The notes beneath the pieces are model-generated. The model did not search any database, was not told where the DNA came from, and saw only the letters and a program-made list of their open reading frames with translations. DNA of 64,000 bases from a bacterium (lineage in GTDB: Bacteria; UBA8248): positions 1,280,001 through 1,344,000 of the forward strand of contig CBDBEV010000001.1 in assembly GCA_965204535.1 (NCBI GenBank), written 5' to 3'. A program made the position numbers and the translations under genes. Shown one piece after another: positions 23,962 to 44,174 of this stretch (positions within the stretch are counted from its first letter, which is position 1; every line of letters starts with the position of its first letter).

Positions 23962-24633
23962 TCATCCACCCGCGAGCTTCGCGGCTTCACGAATCGCGTG
24001 GGTCAGGCGGCCTACGGTAGTCGAAGGGTTTCCGTATGGATTACCCCCCTGTTCTCGGTTTTCAAGCTGTCTTTTACTGCGCTCTTCGGCATCTTCGACT
24101 CGGGCGAGCATCTCGTCGCAGTCGGGCGTTTTTGCACCACTCATGTCATATTCCGGTCGCAGGGATTCAAGAATTTTTTGCATCTCATGGCGATCTTCGG
24201 CCCGGTCGTGATCAGTCTCGTGCAGAACCAGCCAAAGCTCGAAACATGGGTTGGAGCGGCCGACGTGGACGCCGCCTCGTTCGCAGAGCGCCACCGCTTC
24301 GTCGAAACGAGGATGCTCGTCTCTGTCGAATACCGCCCAGACCTGATCGTTTTCCTCGAACGAATCCTTTTTCCTGCGACTGCGTGGGTCGAGTCCCAGA
24401 GATCGTGCGAGTTTGACGGCATTTTCTGCGATGGTGTAGGGAACGCCTATAGCAGGGTTAGTTTCTACTTCTACTAGGGTGTCTCTATAGGCGCGTTTGA
24501 TCGCGCCGAAATAGGCTGGTTCCGTCTTCTTTCCCTCAAAAAACAGGATGAAGCGGCGTTTCGGTTCCTGTATATAGCGGCGACGCCTAAGGTTCGGGAC
24601 GTCGCGCCAAGCGGCCCTAGTTCGCCGCGCCAA
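23962..24633 (-). CDS. RloB family protein (AbiLii-like)
   Basis: EGKKTEPAYF, VWAVFDRD, SNPCFELWLVLH, NPSTTV; TTG start overlapping the upstream ATPase. Confidence 0.88.
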   Translation of the reverse strand: MARRTRAAWRDVPNLRRRRYIQEPKRRFILFFEGKKTEPAYFGAIKRAYRDTLVEVETNPAIGVPYTIAENAVKLARSLGLDPRSRRKKDSFEENDQVWAVFDRDEHPRFDEAVALCERGGVHVGRSNPCFELWLVLHETDHDRAEDRHEMQKILESLRPEYDMSGAKTPDCDEMLARVEDAEERSKRQLENREQGGNPYGNPSTTVGRLTHAIREAAKLAGG

Positions 24634-25897
24634 GAGTTGAACCAGTAGCCGTGATGGAATCGATGAAGGGAACTCCACCGTAGCGGCCCTGCAGATATCC
24701 CTTTTCGATATTATCGCCCTTGCGGGTTCGGATGTCGGTCAAGGGATAGAGTCGGGTAGCGCCTTCGTTGTCTTTTTCAATGAACCAGACCTCATCACGC
24801 CGGAGTAAGGATGATTTCAGCAAGTTGGTGTCGTGGGTCGTCGCAATGAGTTGCGCGCCTTTGGGATTGGTCTCCCGCGAGCAGAATAGTTTCAGCACAG
24901 CTTCAGCAGCTTGGGTGTGCAGGCTGGCGTCCAGTTCATCAATGAACAAGGGCGTGCCCTCGTCGAGCGCGCGAAATGCGAGAGCAAGCACGATCAATAA
25001 CCGCCGCGTTCCAGCGCTCTCACTGTCCAACTCGAGATAGAACGGCTCACTACCCTGCCCACGATGGGCGAGTTCGATGGTAACATGCTTATCTTTAACC
25101 TCCGGTGGTTCGGAGCCGCCTATCTTCTTGAACAACGTGAATAGTTCCCTTTGAATTCCTTGCATTTCTTCTGAAAGTTCGGATTCTCTTTGTCTGTAGC
25201 CGATGACCCCGGTATCAATCTTTCCAAGGAAGTCGATTACCCGGTCATCCTGTTTTTCCTCGGCCAATCGTGATGAAATCGCCTCCTCGGGGACGCCGAT
25301 GCTCCAGTCGGCGCGGAGGGATCTAAAGTACCCGAATACTTCTGAAAGCTGTTCGTGGCCGTTTTGGGCCGCCGCGGAAACGAACAGGCTATTGGGTCTC
25401 GTCAAGCCCGCGATGACTTTGTTTTGTCCCTTCAATCCGCGTCCGAAACGAAATTCATCCCCGGTGCGCTCGAACAACGTCTGGCGATGGGACTTGGGAA
25501 AGGCGTACAGCCATTCGGACTCGAACGCCGTATCTGAGACCTCGAAGCCGTAGTGGTGCCGCACGCCGTCGATGAGAAAATCGATATCGAAACGAGTCGG
25601 TAGCCGGGGGCCGTCGTCATCGAGCCTGAAAGGATGGCGCGGAACATCGCCATCTGCTTCCCAGTGGGTTTGTGAGTGCAACACCATGCCTCGCATGGTG
25701 CTTATCGCGTCAATGAGGTTGCTCTTGCCCGACGCATTTGCGCCGTAGATGACGACCGCCGGTAAAACCGAGCCACTCGGAGCCGCCGCGCAGTCGATGA
25801 GTTCTTCTTGCCGCTCTTTCAGCGAAGACGCTGCAAGCGACAATTCCTGGTAATCGCGGATGGAGAGATGGTTGGAGACGCCGAAGTGAAGCAACAT
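24617..25897 (-). CDS. AAA_21/ABC-type ATPase (RloA/AbiLi-like)
   Basis: YGANASGKSN Walker A, ESAGT signature, IDELDASLH, ATTHD, YLQGRYGGVP. Confidence 0.9.
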   Translation of the reverse strand: MLLHFGVSNHLSIRDYQELSLAASSLKERQEELIDCAAAPSGSVLPAVVIYGANASGKSNLIDAISTMRGMVLHSQTHWEADGDVPRHPFRLDDDGPRLPTRFDIDFLIDGVRHHYGFEVSDTAFESEWLYAFPKSHRQTLFERTGDEFRFGRGLKGQNKVIAGLTRPNSLFVSAAAQNGHEQLSEVFGYFRSLRADWSIGVPEEAISSRLAEEKQDDRVIDFLGKIDTGVIGYRQRESELSEEMQGIQRELFTLFKKIGGSEPPEVKDKHVTIELAHRGQGSEPFYLELDSESAGTRRLLIVLALAFRALDEGTPLFIDELDASLHTQAAEAVLKLFCSRETNPKGAQLIATTHDTNLLKSSLLRRDEVWFIEKDNEGATRLYPLTDIRTRKGDNIEKGYLQGRYGGVPFIDSITATGSTLGAAN

Positions 25898-29074: not shown

Positions 29075-29293
29075 TCCTTCCTGCAACTGCCGACGCCCGA
29101 GATGGCGGTCGCGCGCGTCGCGCAGCGCGTTCTTGAAGGAGGCCACGACGTGCCCGGTGAGGTGATCCGAAGACGGTTCGACGCCAGCCGGCGCAACTTC
29201 GAGCAAATCTATCGAGGCTTGGTCGACGGGTGGATTCTGTACGATAATTCGGGCGATGAACCGAAGCGACTGGCGGAGGAGTCGAGGGTATGA
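29072..29293 (+). pseudogene. C-terminal remnant of zeta-toxin-like/predicted ABC-type ATPase
   Basis: FLQLPTPEMAVARVAQRV.EGGHDVP.EVIRRRF...LVD.W.LYDNSG; no P-loop half upstream. Confidence 0.72.
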
Positions 29294-29508
29294 ATTCAAA
29301 AGGCGAAAGCCCGGCGCAAAAGCCTCGCGATCCTGACTTCGTCGGCGCCGATGCGGCGATGCGCCGTGCGGCCAAACGCGCGCAGTTGCGAGCGAAAGAA
29401 ACTGCTAAAATGGCCGCGGCGAACAAAGGAAGCGCCGGATCGGGCGAAATTCATAGAACGAACACTGGGCGCGACCCGCGCGAGCGAAGCCCCCGAAAGC
29501 CGGAGTGA
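29290..29508 (+). CDS. Small protein, putative antitoxin partner
   Basis: ATGA overlap with the remnant; DPDFVGADAAMRRAAKRA. Confidence 0.5.
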   Translation: MNSKGESPAQKPRDPDFVGADAAMRRAAKRAQLRAKETAKMAAANKGSAGSGEIHRTNTGRDPRERSPRKPE

Positions 29509-29769: not shown

Positions 29770-30057
29770 ATGACCACCTATGAATACCTCAACCTCATCG
29801 TCTCCTTTGGCGGTTTGGGGCTACTCTTTTACGGCATCCGCGTCATGGCGAAGAACGCCGATATGCGCGCGGCGGACTCCGAGCGCAAGCACAATGAGGC
29901 GATGACCGAATCCCGGCGCAGAGAGGAAGAGTCGTTGCGCAGGCACAACGAGACCATGACGTCACTTTCGCAAAGTAACGACGCGCTTCGCGAACTCATC
30001 GACGGACAGGCGGAAAGCCGCATGGCCCTGCGCGAACTCATCGAGCGAAACGGATAG
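29770..30057 (+). CDS. Small TM plus coiled-coil protein, distant relative of the 35.7-37.9 kb array ORFs
   Basis: MTT start, one TM, G[IL]R.M, RKHNEAM/RRHNETM, ends ALRELIERNG. Confidence 0.7.
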   Translation: MTTYEYLNLIVSFGGLGLLFYGIRVMAKNADMRAADSERKHNEAMTESRRREEESLRRHNETMTSLSQSNDALRELIDGQAESRMALRELIERNG

Positions 30058-34494: not shown

Positions 34495-35529
34495 ATGAAC
34501 ATGGCGGAAACCATGCGGGCGGCGGTGTATTACCGAAACGACGACGTGCGGATCGAGGAGATGGCGAAGCCCCGCGCCGGGGCGGGCGAGCTTTTGGTCG
34601 AGACGCGCGCGAGCGGCATCTGCGGCAGCGACGTAATGGAATGGTACCGGGTGAAGAGCGCGCCGCGCGTCTTGGGCCACGAGGTGACGGGCGTCGTCGC
34701 GCAAGCGGGCGAGGGTGTGGCGGGTTTTCGCGCAGGCGATCGCGTCTGCGTCACCCATCACGTGCCCTGTAATGCCTGCGCGCATTGCCTGCGCGGCGAC
34801 CACACGGCTTGTGAGATGCTGAAAGCTACGAATTTCGACCCGGGCGGTTTCGCCGAGTTCATCCGCTTGCCCGCCGTCAACGTGGATCGGGGGACGTTCC
34901 GCCTGCCCGATGAGGTTTCGGACGATGCGGGCGTGTTCGTCGAGCCGCTGGGCTGCGTCCTGCGCGGCTGGCGGCGCTTCCGGATGACGCCGGGCCTCTC
35001 CGTCCTCGTGGTGGGAAGCGGGATGTCGGGCCTGTTGCATGTGCAGGCGGCGCGCATCCTGGGAGCGGGAGCCATATTCGCGGCGGACGTCCATCCCTGG
35101 CGTCTCGAAGCCGCCGAGCGGTTCGGCGCGCATGCGCTGCCCCCGTGCGAAGATATGGCGGAGGCCTTACGGGAGGCGAACGAGGGCCGCCTGGCGGATC
35201 GCGTCATCCTGTGCGCTGGCGTGCCCGAGGCTCTTAAGACGGCCCTCGCGTGCGTCGCGACCTGCGGCGTCTTGCAGCTTTTCGCCCCCACACCGCCGGG
35301 ATACCGTCCTGAAATCGACCTCAACCGAATCTGGAGCGAGCAGATCGCCATCACCACCACCTATGGCGCGGCGCCGCTCGATCTCGAAGAAGCGCTCGCG
35401 CTCATACGCGCCGGCCGCATCGAGGTCGGGGAGATGGTCACCCACAGGCTCCCGCTCGCGCAGGCGCAGGAGGGCTTCCGCCTCGTCGCCGAGGCGGGCG
35501 AATCACTGAAAGTTGTGCTCAAACCCTGA
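34495..35529 (+). CDS. Zn-dependent alcohol/polyol dehydrogenase
   Basis: GICGSD, GHE, C..C..C...C, EPLGC, VVGSG.SG. Confidence 0.92.
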   Translation: MNMAETMRAAVYYRNDDVRIEEMAKPRAGAGELLVETRASGICGSDVMEWYRVKSAPRVLGHEVTGVVAQAGEGVAGFRAGDRVCVTHHVPCNACAHCLRGDHTACEMLKATNFDPGGFAEFIRLPAVNVDRGTFRLPDEVSDDAGVFVEPLGCVLRGWRRFRMTPGLSVLVVGSGMSGLLHVQAARILGAGAIFAADVHPWRLEAAERFGAHALPPCEDMAEALREANEGRLADRVILCAGVPEALKTALACVATCGVLQLFAPTPPGYRPEIDLNRIWSEQIAITTTYGAAPLDLEEALALIRAGRIEVGEMVTHRLPLAQAQEGFRLVAEAGESLKVVLKP

Positions 35530-35544
35530 TCGCAAGCCCGAATC

Positions 35545-35573
35545 TTGCGGGGGAGCGCGAAAGAGATTAGTAT
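35545..35573 (+). promoter_or_regulatory. Putative sigma70 promoter, unit 1 (repeated at 36012, 36563, 37082, 37568)
   Basis: TTGCGG-N17-TAGTAT (units 1,3,4) or TAGTGT (units 2,5); hexamers and 17-bp spacing kept while spacer bases vary. Confidence 0.7.
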
Positions 35574-35664
35574 TTTTCCGAGAAAGCGAGCAACGCAGGG
35601 CAGGGCGCTCTGGGTCCACGAGGTTGTTCGGTTTTTTGTTGGTGGACTCGCAAGGAGGAAGGAA

Positions 35665-35871
35665 GTGACGACTTTTCAAATCGCGACGCTGGTTGCATTG
35701 GGCATTCAGAGCGCAATAGCTCTTGGTGTGGGAAGCGTTCAGTGTATCCTGATATGGAAGGGCTTGCGACAGATGGAGCGCGCCTCGGAGTTCAGGGAAA
35801 GAGAGAGCGCAAGACGGCACGAGGAATCCATGACCGCGCTCAAGGCGCTCATCGAGCGGACGGCGAAGTAA
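35665..35871 (+). CDS. Array ORF 1, small TM/coiled-coil protein (68 aa)
   Basis: GTG start after AAGGAGG; same N-terminus as ORFs 2-4. Confidence 0.8.
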   Translation: MTTFQIATLVALGIQSAIALGVGSVQCILIWKGLRQMERASEFRERESARRHEESMTALKALIERTAK

Positions 35872-35895
35872 CTTCTACTTCCCGCCGGCCAACCC

Positions 35896-35925
35896 GCCCC
35901 CGTCTTTCGGGAAGGGGGCTTTTCT
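35896..35925 (+). terminator. Intrinsic terminator, unit 1
   Basis: gccccc...gggggc hairpin then ttttct. Confidence 0.65.
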
Positions 35926-36120
35926 GTTGCTCGATTGTTCTCTGCCCATCATCTGTTTTGGGAATCTCTCCAGGTGGCGTTTAGACCTTGGGTCGCGCGA
36001 AGAACCGGATATTGCGGGGGAGTGCGAAAGGGGATAGTGTTATATCCAGGATTGCGGGCCATGGGACGCGAGGCTGTGGCGTTTCGCATTTGAGAGTCAA
36101 GGACCCGGGAGGAGAAGGAA

Positions 36121-36423
36121 GTGACGACTTTTCAAATCGCGACGCTGGTGGCATTGGGCATTCAGAGCGCAATAGCTCTTGGTGTAGGAAGCGTTCAGTG
36201 TATCCTGATATGGAAAGGCTTGCGACAGATGGAGCGCGCCTCGGAGTTCAGGGAAAGAGAGAGCGCTAGACGGCACGAGGAAGTCATGATGGAGGGTGCG
36301 AGGCGGCACGAGGAGGTTATGAAGAATCACGCCGAGAACATGAAAAATCATGAGGAAAACATGAAAAAACATGAGGAGTCGATGACCGCGCTCAAAACGC
36401 TCATCGAGCGGACAGGGAAGTAA
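36121..36423 (+). CDS. Array ORF 2 (100 aa)
   Basis: Core plus one 11-aa and three 7-aa modules. Confidence 0.82.
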   Translation: MTTFQIATLVALGIQSAIALGVGSVQCILIWKGLRQMERASEFRERESARRHEEVMMEGARRHEEVMKNHAENMKNHEENMKKHEESMTALKTLIERTGK

Positions 36424-36448
36424 CCTCTACTTCCCGCCGGCCAACCCG

Positions 36449-36476
36449 CCCCCGTCCTCCGGGACGGGGGTTTTCT
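36449..36476 (+). terminator. Intrinsic terminator, unit 2
   Basis: cccccgtcc-tccg-ggacggggg-ttttct. Confidence 0.75.
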
Positions 36477-36681
36477 GTTGATCGATGGTTCTCTGCCCAC
36501 CATCTGTTTTGGGAATCTCTCAAGGTGGCGGTTAGGCCTTGGGTCGCGCGAAGAACCGGATATTGCGGTCGGTTGCGAAAGAGATTAGTATTTTTCTGAG
36601 AAAGCGAGCAACGCAGGGCAGGACGCTCTGGGTCCACGAGGTTGTTCGATTTATTGATGGTGGACTCGTAAGGAGAAAGAA

Positions 36682-36942
36682 GTGACGACTTTTCAAATCG
36701 CGACGCTGGTGGCATTGGGCATCCAGAGCGCAATAGCTCTTGGTGTAGGAAGTGTTCAGTGTATCCTGATATGGAAGGGCTTGAGGCAGATGGAGCGCGC
36801 CTCGGAGTTCAGGGAAAGAGAGAGCGCAAGACGGCACGAGGAAGTCATGAGGGAGGGCGCGAGACGGCACGAAGAGAACATGAAAAAACATGAGCAGTCC
36901 ATGACCGCGCTCAAGACGCTCATCGAGCGGACAGGGAAGTAA
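36682..36942 (+). CDS. Array ORF 3 (86 aa)
   Basis: Core plus one 11-aa and one 7-aa module. Confidence 0.82.
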   Translation: MTTFQIATLVALGIQSAIALGVGSVQCILIWKGLRQMERASEFRERESARRHEEVMREGARRHEENMKKHEQSMTALKTLIERTGK

Positions 36943-36967
36943 CCTCTACTTCCCGCCGGCTACTCCG

Positions 36968-36998
36968 CCCCCGTCCTCCGGGACGGGGGTTTTCTTTT
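36968..36998 (+). terminator. Intrinsic terminator, unit 3
   Basis: Same hairpin then ttttctttt. Confidence 0.75.
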
Positions 36999-37200
36999 GT
37001 TCGATGGTTCTCTGCCCACCATCTGTTTTGGGAATCTCTCAAGGTGGCGGTTAGGCCTTGGGTCGCGAGAAGCACCGAATCTTGCGGTCGAGCGCGAAAG
37101 AGATTAGTATTTTTCCGAGAAAGCGAGCAACGCAGGGCAGGGCGCTCTGGGTCCACGAGGTTGTTCGGTTTTTGTTGGTGGACTCGCAAGGAGGAAGGAA

Positions 37201-37428
37201 GTGACGACTTTTCAAATCGCGACGCTGGTGGCATTGGGCATTCAGAGCGCAATAGCTCTTGGTGTGGGAAGCGTTCAGTGTATCCTGATATGGAAGGGCT
37301 TGCGACAGATGGAGCGCGCCTCGGAGTTCAGGGAAAGAGAAAGTGCGAGACGGCATGAGGAAAACATGAAAAAACATGAGGAATCGATGACCGCACTCAA
37401 GACGCTCATCGAGCGGACAGGGAAGTAA
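37201..37428 (+). CDS. Array ORF 4 (75 aa)
   Basis: Core plus one 7-aa module. Confidence 0.82.
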   Translation: MTTFQIATLVALGIQSAIALGVGSVQCILIWKGLRQMERASEFRERESARRHEENMKKHEESMTALKTLIERTGK

Positions 37429-37453
37429 CCTCTACTTCCCGCCGGCTACTCCG

Positions 37454-37481
37454 CCCCCGTCCTCCGGGCCGGGGGTTTTCT
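37454..37481 (+). terminator. Intrinsic terminator, unit 4
   Basis: Same hairpin with one mismatch then ttttct. Confidence 0.7.
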
Positions 37482-37676
37482 GTTGCTCGATTGTTCTCTG
37501 CCCACCATCTGTTTTGGGAATCTTTCAAGGTGACTTTTAGGCCTTGAGTCGCGCGCAGAGCCGGATATTGCGGGAGTACGCGAAAGGGGATAGTGTTATA
37601 CTCAGGATTGCGGGCCATGGAACGCGAGGCCGTGGAGTTCGCAGGGTGAATACGAAAGACCCGAGAGGAAAAAGAG

Positions 37677-37871
37677 ATGACGACTTTCCAAATCGCAACG
37701 CTCGGGTTCTACGCCGTGCAGTCCCTCATCGGCCTCGCGCAGTGCGCCCTCATCCTGATGGGCTTGAGGCAGATGAGCCGCGCCTCGGAGTTCAGGGAAA
37801 GAGAGAGCGCTAGACGGCACGAGGAATCCATGACCGCGCTCAAGACGCTCATCGAGCGGACGGCGAAGTAA
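37677..37871 (+). CDS. Array ORF 5 (64 aa), divergent TM segment
   Basis: ATG start; TM variant GFYAVQSLIGLAQCALIL; C-terminus as ORF 1. Confidence 0.8.
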   Translation: MTTFQIATLGFYAVQSLIGLAQCALILMGLRQMSRASEFRERESARRHEESMTALKTLIERTAK

Positions 37872-37896
37872 TCTCTACTTCCCGCCGGACAACCCG

Positions 37897-37927
37897 CCCC
37901 CGGCCTCCGGGATGGGGGTTTTTCTTT
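37897..37927 (+). terminator. Intrinsic terminator, unit 5 (U-tract is the IS target)
   Basis: ccccc...ggggg then tttttcttt. Confidence 0.65.
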
Positions 37928-37961
37928 GGGAATTATATACTAAGTTACCCAAGCGGCATGT

Positions 37962-38111
37962 TTAGGCGTGCTTTTTCTTGAGGTAGCGCCAGTTCTTTTT
38001 GGGCGGTCGCTGCATGATCGCGCGCGCTACATTCTCCGGTGTGTCATGTATCGGTTTAGGCATTGGGTTGGATGGTCGACCTACTGGTTTCTTGTTAGTT
38101 TCTTCTCTCAT
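37962..38111 (-). CDS. Small basic Pro-rich protein at the IS end
   Basis: MREETNKKPVGRP...DTPENVARAIMQRPPKKNWRYLK; GAAGGGG RBS. Confidence 0.55.
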   Translation of the reverse strand: MREETNKKPVGRPSNPMPKPIHDTPENVARAIMQRPPKKNWRYLKKKHA

Positions 38112-38167
38112 ATGAAGCCCCCTTCTAGGCATACTAGCGAACGCACACTCATCCTTCAAATTAAAAT

Positions 38168-38196
38168 TTGACACAACTTACCCAACATTGCATTAT
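38168..38196 (+). promoter_or_regulatory. Putative sigma70 promoter for passenger genes
   Basis: TTGACA-N17-CATTAT. Confidence 0.6.
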
Positions 38197-38203
38197 CGTA
38201 TGA

Positions 38204-38334
38204 GCCAAACATCTGCATGTGGTCCTGAAAGTCGGGCCGCCTGCTGAATACAAAACCGCTCCCAGCGGAAATAAGCAGGGTCTCACCCAAAACGTGCAGA
38301 TGTTTGGCGACCGACCCGGCCTCGCGGTGAGGCC
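38204..38334 (+). ncRNA. Candidate structured leader RNA
   Basis: 17-bp closing stem 38204-38220/38292-38308 enclosing sub-hairpins, then hairpin 38318-38334. Confidence 0.45.
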
Positions 38335-38358
38335 AGGAAACTCCAAGGAGAAGTCGTC

Positions 38359-39750
38359 ATGTTTACCAAACACATCGCAGTGGTTCTTTTCCTGTTGGTT
38401 TTCACGTTCGGTTGTGGTGGTGGGTCAATGCAGAGTGAACTGCCGGTTCAGAATTACTCAAGGCCAGCTTACCAAAACCCGAATTACCATCCCTATTTAA
38501 CGCCATCCAATGCTTACAGGTGGGAAAACACAATACATGTAGGTGGCGACGTTGAACCCCGCGATAAATTACGCCGGGTCGGAACTTTTGGCAGTATCAA
38601 GGTTTTCCAAGGAGCATCGCGTGATGGCGTCGGAAAGAAACGTCTGGAAAACTACGAACATGACCTGCTGACTCAAGACGATTCGACATCATCTTCGCGT
38701 GATGGATTCTATCCATTCAGAGTGGCTCCAAAGATTTGGCTTGAAGATGATTTTTACAGACTTCTCAGGGCAAATGATGAAAAAGCGGAAGGTCTTATAC
38801 AAGCATTGTTCGGAAGCGTTCGGATTCTCAACGATGCCCTTCCGCCTGAATTTCAAATCGACTTCACTACCGAAGATTCACCCCAAGTCGAGGGAACAAT
38901 CGCTATCGCATTTCGTTCCCCTGGTAGGATTGCGGAAATTTGCGGTAGTGCTGGGACTGTCGCATGCGCATCATCGGATGTTTTAAATTTGCACAACAAG
39001 ACGAATTCAGCCGTTATTTATTTTCCCGACAACCTGGACACATCAAAGAGGCAAACGACCCAAACGATAATACTCCATGAACTTTTGCATGCTCTTGGCA
39101 TTCAGGGACATGTGGACAGTATTGAATTTCCCGACTCGCTTATGGGCGCATACGGCGATTTTTTCCCGAACCCAGGGTTCGTATTGCACCGCATTGATCG
39201 AGAGATTTTACAAATTATGTACATGTCTCAACGGACGGATGACTACAATGATTGGGGTGAATGGAGTGATACGACCCTGCACATAACCGGAGAGTCTGTC
39301 GATGGGCACGTCAATTTCGGGGTGGCGCTGTTCAATGGTCTGCCACAACCTTGGGCGCGTGGCGTGGCACCTCGAAGTATGTTGAGCTTCGAGTCAAAAC
39401 CATCTTACTTGTTCGGGTCCGTTTCATGGAAAGGCTCTCTGTTAGGGTTCTCGGGGATATCTCCGGTTTACGGGGAAACCACACTCACTGTTGACATGGA
39501 CAACCTTGATGACGAACAAGACCTGAATTTCAGGAACCTGTTCTTCCTCAGTCGGTTCGAAGAAAGCGGAGCCGAAAGGTGGTTCCCTACTAGGAACATA
39601 GCCTACAAGGTGAAAATGTCACAACAAGGATTTTATCGTTCCGAAGATGACGGCCAAATTAGAGGCGTTTTCATCGGTCCAAGGCACGAGGGTATGGCAG
39701 GAACGCTCAAGCGCACAGACCTGGTCGGAGCATTCGGGGGGAAACGATAA
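38359..39750 (+). CDS. Lipoprotein with HExxH zinc-metalloprotease motif and probable TbpB-like C-terminal barrel
   Basis: Lipobox FTFG-C, HELLHALGIQGH, SLMG Met-turn-like, ends LVGAFGGKR; AAGGAG RBS. Confidence 0.7.
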   Translation: MFTKHIAVVLFLLVFTFGCGGGSMQSELPVQNYSRPAYQNPNYHPYLTPSNAYRWENTIHVGGDVEPRDKLRRVGTFGSIKVFQGASRDGVGKKRLENYEHDLLTQDDSTSSSRDGFYPFRVAPKIWLEDDFYRLLRANDEKAEGLIQALFGSVRILNDALPPEFQIDFTTEDSPQVEGTIAIAFRSPGRIAEICGSAGTVACASSDVLNLHNKTNSAVIYFPDNLDTSKRQTTQTIILHELLHALGIQGHVDSIEFPDSLMGAYGDFFPNPGFVLHRIDREILQIMYMSQRTDDYNDWGEWSDTTLHITGESVDGHVNFGVALFNGLPQPWARGVAPRSMLSFESKPSYLFGSVSWKGSLLGFSGISPVYGETTLTVDMDNLDDEQDLNFRNLFFLSRFEESGAERWFPTRNIAYKVKMSQQGFYRSEDDGQIRGVFIGPRHEGMAGTLKRTDLVGAFGGKR

Positions 39751-39751
39751 A

Positions 39752-40225
39752 ATGCTTAAACGAATTTTCGCAACTATAAGTATTTTTGTTCTGGGCATTT
39801 CAGGATGCGTTTCCGTTGAGGAATTGGCGCGGCAGGACTTGGGAACCATCGTCGAGCACAAGAGAATTTTCGTTGAATGCAAGGGAAAGCGATTTGCATT
39901 TAAGGAGTGGCTCGAAAAGGAAAAGAAGCATCTCCTGACAAAACATGAAATATCCACCAAATCAACCCAGACATACGCGAAATGCCTTGAAGAAAAGCTG
40001 GGTGTAATGTTCTGGGATCAGGTTCCTACGACCAGTCTTGATATTTTCTCCAAGACAACCTTGAGGTTCTACACCGGTGGAGACCATACCCTGGAAAGGT
40101 ATTTCGAGCGAGTCCGAAAGTGGCAACGAGTAATTCATGAAGGCGGCGAGCCGTGGAAGGGCTTCTGGCATGAACACAACGAAGTGATAGACAAGTGGCG
40201 AGCGATTTACAAGGACGCGAACTAG
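39752..40225 (+). CDS. Hypothetical lipoprotein
   Basis: MLKRIFATISIFVLGISG-C lipobox; starts 1 nt after the previous stop. Confidence 0.7.
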   Translation: MLKRIFATISIFVLGISGCVSVEELARQDLGTIVEHKRIFVECKGKRFAFKEWLEKEKKHLLTKHEISTKSTQTYAKCLEEKLGVMFWDQVPTTSLDIFSKTTLRFYTGGDHTLERYFERVRKWQRVIHEGGEPWKGFWHEHNEVIDKWRAIYKDAN

Positions 40226-40235
40226 GAAGTTCATA

Positions 40236-40475
40236 TTAGACGGGAAGTGGAACGCCCCTTGAAAGCGCATCAGCTTCAATTCTTTTTATGCGGGTTTTCG
40301 TTTCTTTTATATCCACATCAAGGTTTTCTATTTCTACTATGGTTGGCCATCCACTTATGATGCGCTCTGGAAGAGGCACCTTGACCTCAAAACTATCGGT
40401 ATCATACTCCCATGAAAGAAATTCTATTGCTTCCTTTAGAATTTCGACTGTTGTTTCCTTCTTTTTTTCAAGCAT
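40236..40475 (-). CDS. Hypothetical protein (79 aa)
   Basis: Open frame with globular composition downstream of the transposase. Confidence 0.45.
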   Translation of the reverse strand: MLEKKKETTVEILKEAIEFLSWEYDTDSFEVKVPLPERIISGWPTIVEIENLDVDIKETKTRIKRIEADALSRGVPLPV

Positions 40476-40560
40476 GCAAGGTGTTGTCTGACCTTTGCAT
40501 ATTCAATTATCGTTTGATCGGCTTGTTCTTCTTTTTCTTTCTCATTCACGCCATCAATCC

Positions 40561-41587
40561 TTAAAGTGGATACAGCCCCTTTCTCGGGAGCCTTTTCGTC
40601 AATTCTCGATACGTCAACCGCTTGTGGTCAAATCCTTGTGCCATTCTCTGCATTTGATCGGCAGTGTCAAGGGGCCGCTGGTTGTGGCGCCCCTCGAACT
40701 CGTTCACATAACGCTGTAGGTACTTGAACTCATCTTGTGGTAGGTGCCCATGTAACCGCGCTTGAGGAGCGCCCAGAACGATTCGACCCCGTTGGTGTGC
40801 GCTTGTTCCCTCACGTATTCTCCCGCGCTGTGTTTCACGGATTCATGTTCGAAATCGACCATACCCCGATAGGACGGATTATCGTCTATGTAGAGCGTCG
40901 CGCCCATGGCGGCGTTCTCTCGCACAAAGCCTTGCAAGGTGGGCTTGTCTGGTGAACCACCCCATTCCTCGCCAAGCTTCACTACTTCGGCGGAAATCCT
41001 GTTTGTTCCCGATCCTTCATCCCGATAACGGCGGTCTTGCCCACCGGTTCGCGTCCCGCTCGCAGCTTCTTGTTCGCGTGCTTGTTTCTCTCCTTGCCGC
41101 CGATGTAGGTCTCATCAACTTCTACTGGCCCTGTCATGGCATCGCCATCATCGAACAGAAACATACCTCCGTCCCATGTATCTTCTTCATCCTCCCACGC
41201 TTCCCTGATTCTGTGGCCTAGATGCCATGCGCTCTTTTGCGTGATGCCGAGGTCGCGGTGTAGCTTCATGCTGGAATGACCCTTGAAGTTGGTCGTCATG
41301 ATGTATATGGCAAATAACCACGTCTGGTAGCCAAGGGGGGAGGCGTGCATGAGAGTATCGGTTTTCACCGAGAAATCCTTGCGGCAATCACGGCAACGAT
41401 AGGGCTGAGGCTTGCGGGTCTTTCGTTCCTGCACATTCAGGCTCCTGCACTTCGGGCAACACACGCCATCCGGCCAGCGCGTCTTGATGAACCATTGCTC
41501 CGCCGCGTCATCATTGGGAAACATGCGGGTCAATTCGATGAGGGAAATGCCTTTGCGGTAATGTTTACCTGGGGCTTTCTGTGTCAT
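40561..41587 (-). pseudogene. IS1595-family DDE transposase, two frameshifts
   Basis: Zn ribbon RWPDGVCCPKC..YRCRDCRK, VEVDETYIGG, HTNGVESFWALLKRG, then YLQRYVNEFEGRHN in a third frame; shifts near 41008 and 40728. Confidence 0.92.
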
Positions 41588-41613
41588 GTAATTACCTCCT
41601 TTATTTTGGAAGC

Positions 41614-41642
41614 AATTTACCCTAACGGTATGAATTTGTCAA
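41614..41642 (-). promoter_or_regulatory. Putative transposase promoter
   Basis: TTGACA-N17-TAAATT inside the TIR, AAGGAGGT RBS downstream. Confidence 0.6.
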
Positions 41643-41693
41643 GTGGGTAACTTAGTATATAATTCCCTTTTCTTTTACACCGCTGATTGTCCG

Positions 41694-44174
41694 CTATTCA
41701 TCTACGGGGTGGTAGTTCAGTTCGCTCCCGGGCGGGGAATCGCCCTCGGTCGCTTCGTCCTCATAAAGAGCATCCGGCGGGGCGTCTTCCGTGAACTGCG
41801 TGTCATCCGCGTCCGCATCCTGCGGGGCGGGGGCGGGCTCCTTGAGAAGCGGGGCGAGTTTCGCCTCGCGGCGGATTCTTTCCGGCAGGCCGCTCCAGCG
41901 CCTCCTCACGCGCGCGTTTCCTATCGCCATGCCGAGCGCCTTTTTCGCCCCGACGAACACCGCCAGACGCTTCGCCCGCGTGAGGGCGGTGTAGACGAGG
42001 TTTCTCTGCAGCATCGGGAAGTGCTGGGTGTGGAGCGGGATGACGACGGCGGGGTATTCGCTCCCCTGGCTCTTGTGGACGGTGATGGCGTAGGCGTGCA
42101 TCACCTCATCGAGCGCGCCGCGCGTGTATTCGACGACGTTCGAATCGAAAGCGGCGCGAATGCTTCCCTCCTCCGGGGACACGCTCTTGACGACGCCGAT
42201 GTCGCCGTTGAACACGTCCTTGTCGTAGTTGTTGCGCACCTGGATGAGCTTGTCCCCGGTGCGGAACGTCCGGCCTCCGCTCTGGAGCGCGGGCGCGCTT
42301 CCGGCGGGGTTGAGCGCTTCCTGCAGGCGCGCGTTCAGGCTCTGCACGCCGAGCACGCCGCGCTGCATGGGGGAGATGACCTGGAGGTCGGCGATGGCGT
42401 CGATCTGGAACCGATCGGGAATGCGCTCGCGGCACAGTTCGATGATGAGGTCGGCGCAGCGCTCCGCCTCGCTCTCCTCGATGAAGTAATAGTCGAGCGG
42501 GGCGTCTTCTTTTTCCCCCTTGCCGTTTCGGGGCATCTCGCCGCGGTTCACGCGGTGGGCGTTCTCGACGATCAGGCTCTCCTGCGCCTGTCGGAAGACC
42601 TCCGTGAGCCGCGCCACGGGCAGGGTTTCCGACGTGATGACGTCGCTTAAGACGTTGCCGGGCCCCACGGAGGGGAGCTGGTCCACGTCGCCCACCAGGA
42701 CAAGCGTCGCCGGGTCGGGTACCGCGCGCAGCAGGTGGGCCGTCAGGTGTACGTCGAGCATCGAGGCCTCATCAATAATTACGATGTCGCCGGTGAGCGG
42801 GTTTTCCGCATCGCGGGTGAAGCCGCCCGAGTGCCAGCTGTATTCGAGCAGTCTGTGGATGGTGGCCGCCTCGTGGCCTGTGACTTCAGAAAGACGCTTG
42901 GCCGCCCGGCCCGTAGGGGCGCCGAGGATGACCTGGAGGCCGAGTTTCGTGTAGAGGTTCGTGACGGCGCTCACGATGGTCGTCTTGCCGGTGCCGGGGC
43001 CGCCCGTGACGATGAGCACTTTCTGCGTGAGCGCGCCCTCTATCGCCGCCCCCTGATCCTTCGTCGCCTTGCCGCCCTCGAGCGCGCGCCGGGCGAGATG
43101 GCCGAGACGCTCTTTCGTCGTGCTCCCGGGCGCTCCCTGTCCCCGCATGGCGGCTTCGAGACGCGCCTCGTCGCGCGGCGTGCGGATGAGCGCGGCGAGA
43201 CGGCGGGCGACCTCGCATTCCGCGGCGTAGAGCGGACGCGCGTAGACGCGCTTGCCCTCGGCCGAAGCGAGGTTCTCGACCATGTTCGCCGATTCGATCA
43301 CCACCGAGCCGCCCTGGCCCAGGTTCTCGAGAACGGGAGCGAGGGCGTCGGCTTCGGTCTCGAGCATCTCGGCGGCCGTCTCCATCAGGTCGCCGTAGGG
43401 CAGAAAGCAGTGGCCCTCGCGCTCGGCGAGCTGGTTTAGGACGTAGACGGCTCCCGCCGCCAGGCGTTTGGGAGAGTCAACGGGAATTCCCAGCTTCTGC
43501 GCGATGCGGTCCGCGCTCTTGAAGCCCACGCCGTGAATCTCTGACGCCAGGCGATAGGGGTCTTCGCGCAGAATCCGTATGGACGCCTCGCCGTAGGTTC
43601 TCAGGATTTTCTCGGATAGATGGAGCGGGACGTCGTATTGACGGAGAAAAAGCATGATCTCCTTGACCTCGCTCTGGCTCTTCCAGCTCTCGACGATGGC
43701 TTCGAGCTTCTTCGCGCCCAGACCGGCGACTTCCGTGAGGCGCTCGGGGTGGTTGTCGAGGATTTCGAGGGATTTCTCCCCGAAGCGCGTAACGATTCTC
43801 CTGGCGAGAGCGGGGCCGATGTTCTTCACGATGCCGGACGCCAGGTACTTTTCGATTCCCTCGATTGTCGTGGGTGTCAGCGGGCGGGCGAGCTCGGCGT
43901 GGAACTGGCGGCCGAACCTGGGGTGATCCTTCCAGCCGCCCTCGAAGCGCGCGCGCTCGCCCTCGCGGATGGAGGAGAGATAGCCCACAACGGCCACGCG
44001 GGGGAAATCCTCGTTGTCCGGCTGGACGAGCAGGACGCTGTAGCCGGTGTCCTCCGCGCGGAAGCGGATGCGCTCGACCGCGCCGGTCAGTTCGGTCCCG
44101 TCTTGCGGGAAGAGGCCCGCCTGGGGAGGAGGGGTCCTTCTTCCGGGGCGTGGTGTTCTCGGTTTGCGCGTCAT
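41694..44174 (-). CDS. recD2: ATP-dependent RecD2 helicase
   Basis: HhH repeats, TGGPGTGKTT, APTGRAAKRL, DEASM, YAITVHKSQGSE. Confidence 0.93.
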   Translation of the reverse strand: MTRKPRTPRPGRRTPPPQAGLFPQDGTELTGAVERIRFRAEDTGYSVLLVQPDNEDFPRVAVVGYLSSIREGERARFEGGWKDHPRFGRQFHAELARPLTPTTIEGIEKYLASGIVKNIGPALARRIVTRFGEKSLEILDNHPERLTEVAGLGAKKLEAIVESWKSQSEVKEIMLFLRQYDVPLHLSEKILRTYGEASIRILREDPYRLASEIHGVGFKSADRIAQKLGIPVDSPKRLAAGAVYVLNQLAEREGHCFLPYGDLMETAAEMLETEADALAPVLENLGQGGSVVIESANMVENLASAEGKRVYARPLYAAECEVARRLAALIRTPRDEARLEAAMRGQGAPGSTTKERLGHLARRALEGGKATKDQGAAIEGALTQKVLIVTGGPGTGKTTIVSAVTNLYTKLGLQVILGAPTGRAAKRLSEVTGHEAATIHRLLEYSWHSGGFTRDAENPLTGDIVIIDEASMLDVHLTAHLLRAVPDPATLVLVGDVDQLPSVGPGNVLSDVITSETLPVARLTEVFRQAQESLIVENAHRVNRGEMPRNGKGEKEDAPLDYYFIEESEAERCADLIIELCRERIPDRFQIDAIADLQVISPMQRGVLGVQSLNARLQEALNPAGSAPALQSGGRTFRTGDKLIQVRNNYDKDVFNGDIGVVKSVSPEEGSIRAAFDSNVVEYTRGALDEVMHAYAITVHKSQGSEYPAVVIPLHTQHFPMLQRNLVYTALTRAKRLAVFVGAKKALGMAIGNARVRRRWSGLPERIRREAKLAPLLKEPAPAPQDADADDTQFTEDAPPDALYEDEATEGDSPPGSELNYHPVDE

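Follow-up and report, generated by a model that had tools for sequence, protein, structure and literature searches.

Tandem long repeats of the LDR kind are a familiar layout of type I toxin–antitoxin (TA) systems, and the union of an N-terminal membrane helix with a cytoplasmic coiled coil in about 75 amino acids is that of PspB. Here we describe a locus that recalls both, namely a tandem array of five small genes at positions 35530–37927 of a 64,000-nucleotide stretch of bacterial DNA (contig CBDBEV010000001.1, positions 1,280,001 to 1,344,000; the whole stretch is called the window below). We interpret the array as a tandem amplification of one self-contained gene of an undescribed family, the product of which may be a non-toxic, membrane-anchored rod, likely a coiled coil, that would most likely bind soft metals in layers of core His and Met residues; taken as a whole, we regard this interpretation as possible, although short of probable.

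The likeness to ldr/rdl and ibs/sib lies in long tandem repeats that each carry a promoter, a leader, a small membrane protein gene and a terminator, with a small hairpin over the Shine–Dalgarno (SD) sequence. General features of type I systems are given in PMC8594479, where the toxins have a length of 20–60 amino acids. The array differs in that no antisense gene was found, its spacer is a scar, its proteins are longer and have a charged coiled-coil tail, and the relatives of its genes are mostly single or in operons. With BhlA, UviB and TpeE (PF10960, TCDB 1.E.27), the array family shares a length of about 65–80 amino acids, an acidic N-terminal tail, a single N-out helix, a basic flank and an 'RE' followed by a helix (PMC9527704), and homologues of BhlA likewise take inserts of 7, 11 and 14 residues after the helix. 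However, HHalign gave probabilities of 2.5–7% over 13–16 columns, which is no detectable homology, and a PF10960 search of this genome found nothing, whereas the same model has matches in Bacillus subtilis. The TQG motif and the helix consensus PFAxLFxW/YLLF/IYV (PMC9527704) are missing from the array family, and its tail has no bulky aromatic face. It is, moreover, multi-copy and self-promoted, occurs in Gram-negative phyla, and has a His/Met stalk that reaches 150 residues and more and ends in an ALxxLIxRT tip.

SilE binds silver through MxxH and HxxM motifs on one helix face (PMC5008109); repeated His and Met residues at i+3/i+4 on one helix face, together with a gene that has its own promoter, link SilE and PcoE to the array family. 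Nevertheless, SilE is a secreted periplasmic protein encoded in a silver/copper resistance cluster and uses both motifs (PMC5008109), whereas the array family has mainly HxxxM and is membrane-tethered, with a predicted cytoplasmic coiled coil; it also shows an acidic N-terminal tail, a C-in charge bias, no sil, pco or cus neighbours and no Pfam or NCBIfam match. The resemblance to PspB in size, N-terminal membrane helix and cytoplasmic coiled coil is likewise limited, in that PF06667 finds nothing in this genome (it has matches in Escherichia coli) and there are no psp neighbours.

Anatomy of the five-unit array

The five direct repeats of the original prediction were confirmed, with start-to-start spacings of 456, 561, 519 and 476 bp and pairwise identities of 72.8–93.8% over aligned positions. 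All five open reading frames (ORFs) are intact, as had been stated, and encode 68, 100, 86, 75 and 64 amino acids, with GTG as start codon in four and ATG in one. TTGCGG-N17-TAGTAT or TTGCGG-N17-TAGTGT, in sequence a predicted sigma-70-type promoter, stands ahead of every unit; a scan for sigma-70 promoters did not report them at the cut-off applied. Of the 22 further genomes of the genus, 13 were compared at the array site and, with the window, gave 14 genomes and 36 orthologous units. In all 36, TTG of the −35 box is kept, as are positions A2 and T6 of the −10 box, and the box spacing is fixed at 17 nt, while the bases between the boxes vary. Each unit also has the leader and purine-rich ribosome site described earlier, the leader running for 80 or 90–91 nt from the −10 box and falling into two types (type A in units 1, 3 and 4; type B in units 2 and 5), and a GC hairpin with a U-tract 3′ of the ORF, computed at −13.9 to −21.0 kcal/mol. 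The 'conserved spacer' of the original prediction is present as sequence, yet it is not a conserved element and derives from the decayed 3′ end of the gene upstream; unit 5 has none, because an IS1595-family insertion sequence (IS) element sits in its U-tract. In window coordinates, the array and its original flanks are as follows.

34495–35529, plus strand: left flank, zinc-binding dehydrogenase gene, the source of the spacer relic in the window
35545–35573, plus: unit 1 predicted sigma-70-type promoter, TTGCGG-N17-TAGTAT (from sequence; box positions kept in 36 units)
35574–35664, plus: unit 1 leader, type A; CACGAGG at 35617; YC-GNRA-GG mini-hairpin over the SD at 35648–35655
35665–35871, plus: ORF 1, 68 amino acids, shortest tail, coding clade alpha
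35896–35927, plus: unit 1 terminator-like hairpin and U-tract
35930–36008, plus: spacer 1, duplication scar; decayed dehydrogenase 3′ end at 35962–35991
36012–36040, plus: unit 2 predicted promoter, TTGCGG-N17-TAGTGT
36041–36120, plus: unit 2 leader, type B before an alpha coding sequence (recombinant); CGCGAGG at 36067; GNRA hairpin at 36105–36112
36121–36423, plus: ORF 2, 100 amino acids, tail longer by 32 residues (11+7+7+7)
36448–36478, plus: unit 2 terminator-like hairpin and U-tract
36482–36559, plus: spacer 2; dehydrogenase-end relic at 36513–36542
36563–36591, plus: unit 3 predicted promoter, TTGCGG-N17-TAGTAT
36592–36681, plus: unit 3 leader, type A; CACGAGG at 36635; GNRA hairpin at 36666–36673
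36682–36942, plus: ORF 3, 86 amino acids, tail longer by 18 (11+7)
36967–36997, plus: unit 3 terminator-like hairpin and U-tract
37001–37078, plus: spacer 3; dehydrogenase-end relic at 37032–37061
37082–37110, plus: unit 4 predicted promoter, TTGCGG-N17-TAGTAT
37111–37200, plus: unit 4 leader, type A; CACGAGG at 37154; GNRA hairpin at 37184–37191
37201–37428, plus: ORF 4, 75 amino acids, tail longer by 7; one continuous helix in the model
37453–37483, plus: unit 4 terminator-like hairpin and U-tract
37487–37564, plus: spacer 4; dehydrogenase-end relic at 37518–37547
37568–37596, plus: unit 5 predicted promoter, TTGCGG-N17-TAGTGT
37597–37676, plus: unit 5 leader, type B; CGCGAGG at 37623; GNRA hairpin at 37661–37668
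37677–37871, plus: ORF 5, 64 amino acids, coding clade beta (older paralog)
37896–37926, plus: unit 5 terminator-like hairpin and U-tract, the latter the target of the IS insertion
41694–44174, minus strand: original right flank, RecD2 helicase gene, the 3′ end of which is the spacer source in other lineages

Duplication, selection and recombination at the array site

Copy number at this site varies widely, the 14 genomes carrying 5, 4, 4, 4, 3, 3, 2, 2, 2, 2, 2, 1, 1 and 1 units. The ratio of non-synonymous to synonymous substitution rates (dN/dS) of the units is 0.145 over 591 between-genome pairs, and within the window codons 2–50 of units 1–4 differ by four to eight synonymous and no non-synonymous changes. 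Tail lengths, on the other hand, differ among array units by 0, 7, 14, 18, 21, 25, 32 or 33 residues, always through steps of 7 and 11, and growth in such steps is expected if the register of a coiled coil is under selection. The two coding clades and the two leader types are older than the split of the genomes and have been reassorted, as seen in conflicts between leader and coding trees: unit 2 of the window joins a type B leader to an alpha gene, and unit 3 of L017 a type A leader to a beta gene.

The spacers record how the units were multiplied. Those of the window read ESLQVAFRPW (spacer 1), ESLKVAVRPW and ESFKVTFRP* (spacer 4), compared with ESLKVVLKP* at the end of the dehydrogenase, and likeness to this end was found in the window, L016, L018 and L022 (z 1.9–8.9 in 10 spacers). 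A match to the recD2 side was found instead in L017, L019, L025, L026 and one spacer of L020 (z 5.6–27.8 in eight spacers), three spacers match neither flank, and one contains a 909-bp insertion. Spacers of two flank origins imply that duplication occurred at least twice, with different breakpoints. Judged by these matches, the spacer is a duplication scar and not an antitoxin; unequal recombination likely drives the duplication, and the tandem arrangement itself is an ordinary accordion, the units of which are gained, lost and reshuffled by recombination. We hold this account of the anatomy and evolution of the array with high confidence.

The five-unit array is real. Short-read contigs from runs X1 and X3, which are possibly the window's own source, hold unit-specific pieces with zero differences, and these pieces, together with the one to five copies seen at the locus once 13 other genomes are compared, argue that the array is not an assembly artefact. 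None of the listed pieces spans the array, and its exact copy number depends on the assembly; however, the units differ by 6–27%, arrays occupy the same site in other genomes and the coding sequences are under purifying selection, so that an artefact, or neutral repeated DNA, is extremely improbable. A second conserved family site, behind a cytochrome c and beta-propeller cluster (L029–L031; G002, G011, G008), also carries one to three copies across the genus.

The protein family and its distribution

The ORFs had been called uncharacterised, and comparison with Pfam, PHROG, NCBIfam, PADLOC and the PDB placed them in none of these families. Searches of Pfam, PHROGs and NCBIfam with 23 members gave scattered generic helix matches only, the most widely shared in 5 of 23, and the same was true of Pfam, PHROGs and PADLOC with 81 members (at most 6 of 81); PADLOC defence models gave weak scattered matches, the best count being 5 of 81 at an E value of 0.002. 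There was no match among PDB sequences and none in a BFVD fold search, where a single helix carries little signal, and the best ESM atlas scores, 0.85 and 0.82, amount to low recognition and serve as leads only. No description of the family was found in the accessible literature (subscription papers not covered, supplements not included), and the accessible part of PMC13580157 holds nothing relevant to it.

An iterated profile found 29 members at 24 loci in this genome, 64–216 amino acids long: the array, one pair and 22 singles. The array is therefore not the stand-alone system once proposed, because 22 of the 29 members are single-copy. The suggestion of an uncharacterised, amplifiable small-membrane-protein gene with homologues in arrays is, by contrast, well supported, by the arrays at the same site and by tandem runs elsewhere. 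Among the other genomes of the genus the profile matched all 22 (23 of 23 with this one); it matched none of 19 genomes from other genera of the family, none of two from the rest of the order and one of seven in another family. Further afield, a library of clusters at 50% identity gave 558 family matches at E values up to 0.001, and a GTDB scan, in which 103 of 118 stretches were confirmed, returned 76 loci, all in metagenome-assembled genomes (MAGs), with titles that name Nitrospinota, Binatia, Alphaproteobacteria, Acidobacteriota, Deltaproteobacteria/Thermodesulfobacteriota or plain 'bacterium'; one close homologue is titled 'hypothetical protein [Nitrospinae bacterium]'. No match was found in viral contigs or in phage and plasmid collections, the phage and plasmid search being made with one query protein.

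Outside the genus the family is patchy. In the class to which a Binatia MAG belongs it occurs in 54 of 301 genomes, and in an alphaproteobacterial order in 5 of 20; three such genomes each carry 24–28 family matches, with tandem runs. One alphaproteobacterial MAG has a six-copy, operon-like run in which gaps are short and no unit showed a promoter of its own (L055:3790-6335), further runs of three to four copies stand at several sites of G058 C1, and one alphaproteobacterial gene is frameshifted into two overlapping frames (L111:3983-4386), its orthologue in L060 being intact. In a tree of 83 cores over 48 columns (15 sequences without a parsable core were dropped and redundant orthologues omitted), lineage-level clusters are intermixed between phyla; deep support is weak, and the tree does not give the direction of transfer.

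By our own count, 21 of the 76 titles carry the bin prefixes RHO, COS, SB0662, CO36, jk18x or p16x, the other titles giving no habitat. The jk18x bins are MAGs from Ircinia sponges (PMC9531527), and RHO and COS fit host names in PMC8163846, although this link through the prefix is inferred; many hosts of the family are likely to be sponge symbionts. The family is real, undescribed, widely shared and strongly expanded. Searches for gene families enriched in sponge symbionts tend to centre on large annotated proteins. The present family is small and unannotated, reaches about 30 copies per genome, and combines a sharp genus boundary with parallel expansion in several phyla, having been amplified again in Binatia and Alphaproteobacteria; this pattern as a whole points to a shared, as yet unnamed selective pressure.

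Features of the predicted protein

The consensus of 81 diverse members is MTxxE...VGxxQxxLIxxGxRxMxxxxxxR...RHxExM...HxExMxALxxLIERT, and conservation reaches 90% in columns G, M and R, together with A, L, L, I, R and T of the tip. AlphaFold2 modelled a single helix over residues 3–74, with a mean per-residue confidence (pLDDT) of 85 and a predicted template-modelling score (pTM) of 0.39. For statistics on charge bias, spacing and hydropathy, 138 of 171 sequences could be parsed, and 126 of these have more Lys and Arg residues beyond the membrane helix than in their entire N-terminal tail, which is acidic. One N-out/C-in membrane helix that runs straight into a cytoplasmic helix is thus predicted. 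In the same sequences, successive His residues lie 11, 7 or 18 positions apart in 256 of 375 cases, Met is found four residues after His (His+4) 398 times, and the tails have almost no Pro, Cys or aromatic residues. The array's own heptad is MxxHxxxMxxH; HxxxM is present in 25 of the 29 members of this genome and MxxH in 12. The stalk ranges from about 25 to over 150 residues, and some members have heptad repeats in the N-terminal tail as well. A C-terminal Lys tether like that of Lpp was considered and rejected: Lys ends 34 of the 36 array units but only 8 of the 29 members of this genome, and the tail is predicted to lie inside.

The leader RNA and the type I toxin–antitoxin proposal

All 36 array leaders contain CGAGG, and in 34 of the 36 units a weak YC-GNRA-GG hairpin of 2–3 bp, with six different GNRA loops, overlaps the SD; the hairpin is found in 66 of 3137 background genes and in none of 24 paralogs. 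Stems of type B leaders are 89.6% paired (20 of 27 such leaders aligned), with one-sided changes only, and did not beat a column shuffle; no two-sided compensatory change was seen in 15 named type B pairs, and the type A leader shows one, at a low-probability pair. As for a possible riboswitch, the folding z-score of the leader is below −2 in 1 of 36 units and an Rfam search gave no match. The computed accessibility of the SD is 0.40 in the array compared with 0.39 in 60 control genes. The wider motif C[AG]CGAG occurs in 11 of 18 leader groups of this genome, compared with 102 of 1666 background upstream regions (p 1.7e-9, for a motif chosen post hoc and groups that are partly related), and is rare in distant genus members and in other phyla. 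CACGAG is also found in intergenic upstream regions of this genome in general, in 71 of 2221 in the sense direction compared with 43 antisense, often just after apparent promoters; it could be a regulator or methylation site, and is a known restriction site. An upstream ORF in the leader, starting from a conserved CCATGG, was rejected, since by eye 1-nt indels break its frame.

The original prediction likened the array to a type I TA cluster, in which each unit would encode a membrane toxin, kept inactive through an antisense RNA together with folding of the leader. Repeated promoter–leader–ORF–terminator units of 335–443 nt, the GNRA hairpin, the invariant CGAGG and the highly paired stems all fit that layout. 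Against this, a minus-strand match to a TTG-N16-18-TANNNT promoter occurs once in 36 units, inside an unrelated insertion, and no intergenic complement of at least 14 nt to leaders 1 and 2 was found; the SD is no more buried than in controls, two-sided compensation and an Rfam match are lacking, and the spacer, where an antitoxin might lie, is a scar of the flanking genes with two origins. The proteins, at 64–216 amino acids with charged helical tails, exceed the toxin lengths given in PMC8594479, and other members of the family have very short leaders or sit in operons, the hairpin being absent from the paralogs. We therefore consider a type I TA cluster very improbable, and note that promoter–peptide–terminator repeats need not be such clusters. 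The evidence suggests instead that the leader exerts local translational or transcriptional control and is not an antitoxin, with the GNRA mini-hairpin over the SD as a candidate cis-regulatory RNA.

Genomic context of family members

The 87 neighbours of 43 family loci include metabolic enzymes, DNA repair genes, transposases, four restriction–modification loci and one cupredoxin, with no lysis genes among them. Restriction–modification genes thus lie at or beside 4 of the 43 loci, a count made without a control set of neighbours. Family members stand inside coxS–coxL, hsdM–hsdS and hydantoinase operons, where several overlap the start codon of the following gene. Many family genes have strong sigma-70-like boxes followed by a short leader. 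At one single-copy site, 9 of 23 genomes are filled, 11 are empty, one has another gene and two are unresolved; at a second, 10 of 22 are filled and 9 empty, with one and two others. Presence or absence at the two sites does not track flank similarity across the genus, no terminal repeats or transposase were seen on the cassettes there, and in G006 unrelated genes occupy both slots. By this pattern, the family gene is a plug-in cassette in short gaps of ordinary operons.

Unrelated genes without a Pfam match stand in family slots or inside the array in G006 and G004 (L174:713-1375, L199:638-1480 and L024:5524-6201), that of L199 encoding a protein that looks protease-like by eye. Several family members adjoin large multi-copy surface lipoprotein genes whose products start, by eye, with M..F...INKLYAFALAA..LAGCGGGGG; such sites in this genome are C1:984749, C2:1228669, C2:2206437 and C2:2826548-2832604, and another is in L033. 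Neighbours of the family include recA, uvrD, recJ, radC and recD2, and SOS control was considered; it was rejected, as the palindrome at the −35 box, CCGMA-N3-TKCGG, has about 42 sites in the genome and was not seen upstream of recA or lexA candidates.

Possible function of the product

In the interpretation that we favour, the gene has been amplified to one to five copies by recombination, leaving scars of flanking genes as spacers, and its product would be a helical rod, anchored in the inner membrane and likely to form a coiled coil. A homo-oligomer is predicted, kept together by the conserved membrane segment GxxQ..G(L/I)xxM and by the ALxxLIxRT tip, in which core-position His and Met may form stacked sites for Cu, Ag, Ni or Zn. 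Gene copies and repeat number would then both raise metal capacity, which would explain amplification without amino-acid diversification; amplification of an identical protein together with intragenic repeat growth fits a benefit of dosage or capacity better than an arms race, and the placement of members inside operons argues against an unchecked toxin. The metal-binding step, taken by itself, is put forward tentatively. Several observations weigh against it. SilE and PcoE are periplasmic, whereas the tail of the array family is predicted to be cytoplasmic, and no metal efflux or resistance genes were found among the 87 neighbours of 43 loci, the one cupredoxin apart. His is absent from the 90%-conserved columns, so that the core job may not need it; 4 of the 29 members of this genome have no HxxxM at all and retain the anchor, and any slipping repeat copies whatever residues it contains. 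The hydropathy of the membrane segment is moderate (mean 1.62).

The conservation of the membrane exit and the tip, rather than of His, would suit an abundant, metal-free structural or adaptor rod, the tip of which would bind a common partner in the cytoplasm or help to shape the inner membrane while the stalk acts as a length-tolerant spacer. His-free stalks, a register kept through all length changes and the N-terminal heptads of some members agree with this; yet the family is absent from all 19 genomes of sister genera, which have the same core cell machinery, is dispensable at single sites, and has a stalk too variable in length to fit a fixed ruler well, and we think such a scaffold rather unlikely. 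The family might also act in defence at the membrane: a small inner-membrane protein, made from a cassette that has its own promoter and terminator and is inserted between operon genes in the manner of a phage moron, would exclude phages by blocking DNA entry or would depolarize the cell on infection. The plug-in anatomy and the patchy gain and loss agree with this. The unrelated accessory genes in the same slots of G006, the restriction–modification genes at or beside 4 of 43 loci, the mixed-phylum clades and the enrichment of defence genes in sponge MAGs (PMC8163846) would fit defence. It is nonetheless unlikely, because the PADLOC matches are weak, most neighbours are metabolic, viral contigs, phages and plasmids gave no match, and tandem copies remain identical in protein rather than diversifying.

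A membrane-weakening protein for non-lytic export, after the manner of BhlA and TpeE, is quite improbable. The shared layout (PMC9527704) and the inserts after the helix speak for it, and clusters carrying BhlA came up far down the two ESM atlas searches, at 0.84 and 0.79, which makes them leads only; the HHalign values, the empty PF10960 search and the missing motifs and aromatic face speak against it, as does the lack of any endolysin, toxin or bacteriocin gene among the 87 neighbours. The holin-like character once proposed for the array proteins is likewise not supported, given those values, the lack of lysis neighbours and the lack of any viral or phage match. To return to the metal-binding rod, a bolder form of it, which we find doubtful, would make this a habitat-defining, horizontally shared family of sponge symbionts, with a stacked His/Met capacity tuned by copy and repeat number, which unrelated phyla would each have raised to dozens of copies against a shared sponge stress, and with the CGAGG and GNRA leader as an undescribed cis-regulatory RNA that meters translation. 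As the proteins are short single helices, toxicity, metal binding, oligomeric state and phage protection could each be tested cheaply.

The IS1595-family element and other features of the window

The element that follows unit 5, 3.7 kb long with a GC content of about 0.48, splits the array from its original right neighbour recD2 and is missing from the array site in the 13 other genomes. Its transposase lies in two pieces (40982–41587 and 40704–40982), and two passenger ORFs encode a lipoprotein-like protein of 463 amino acids (38359–39750) and one of 192 (39647–40225) without a Pfam match. The window holds one family member in addition to the array.

37928–41667, no strand assigned: IS1595-family element with passenger genes, outside the array; 24-bp terminal inverted repeats at 37928–37951 and 41644–41667, with the 8-bp direct (target) repeat TTTTCTTT on both sides
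29770–30057, plus strand: sixth family member, single copy, 95 amino acids, of a different subfamily

Elsewhere in the window, a lower-GC stretch carries an AAA_21 (AbiEii-type) ATPase gene on the minus strand (24617–25897). Directly upstream of the single family member at 29770, positions 29102–29508 hold a 63-amino-acid fragment that by eye resembles the C-terminus of a P-loop kinase, without a Pfam match, followed by a basic ORF of 72 amino acids; an intact-looking version of 176 amino acids is present at this site in L024 and L025.

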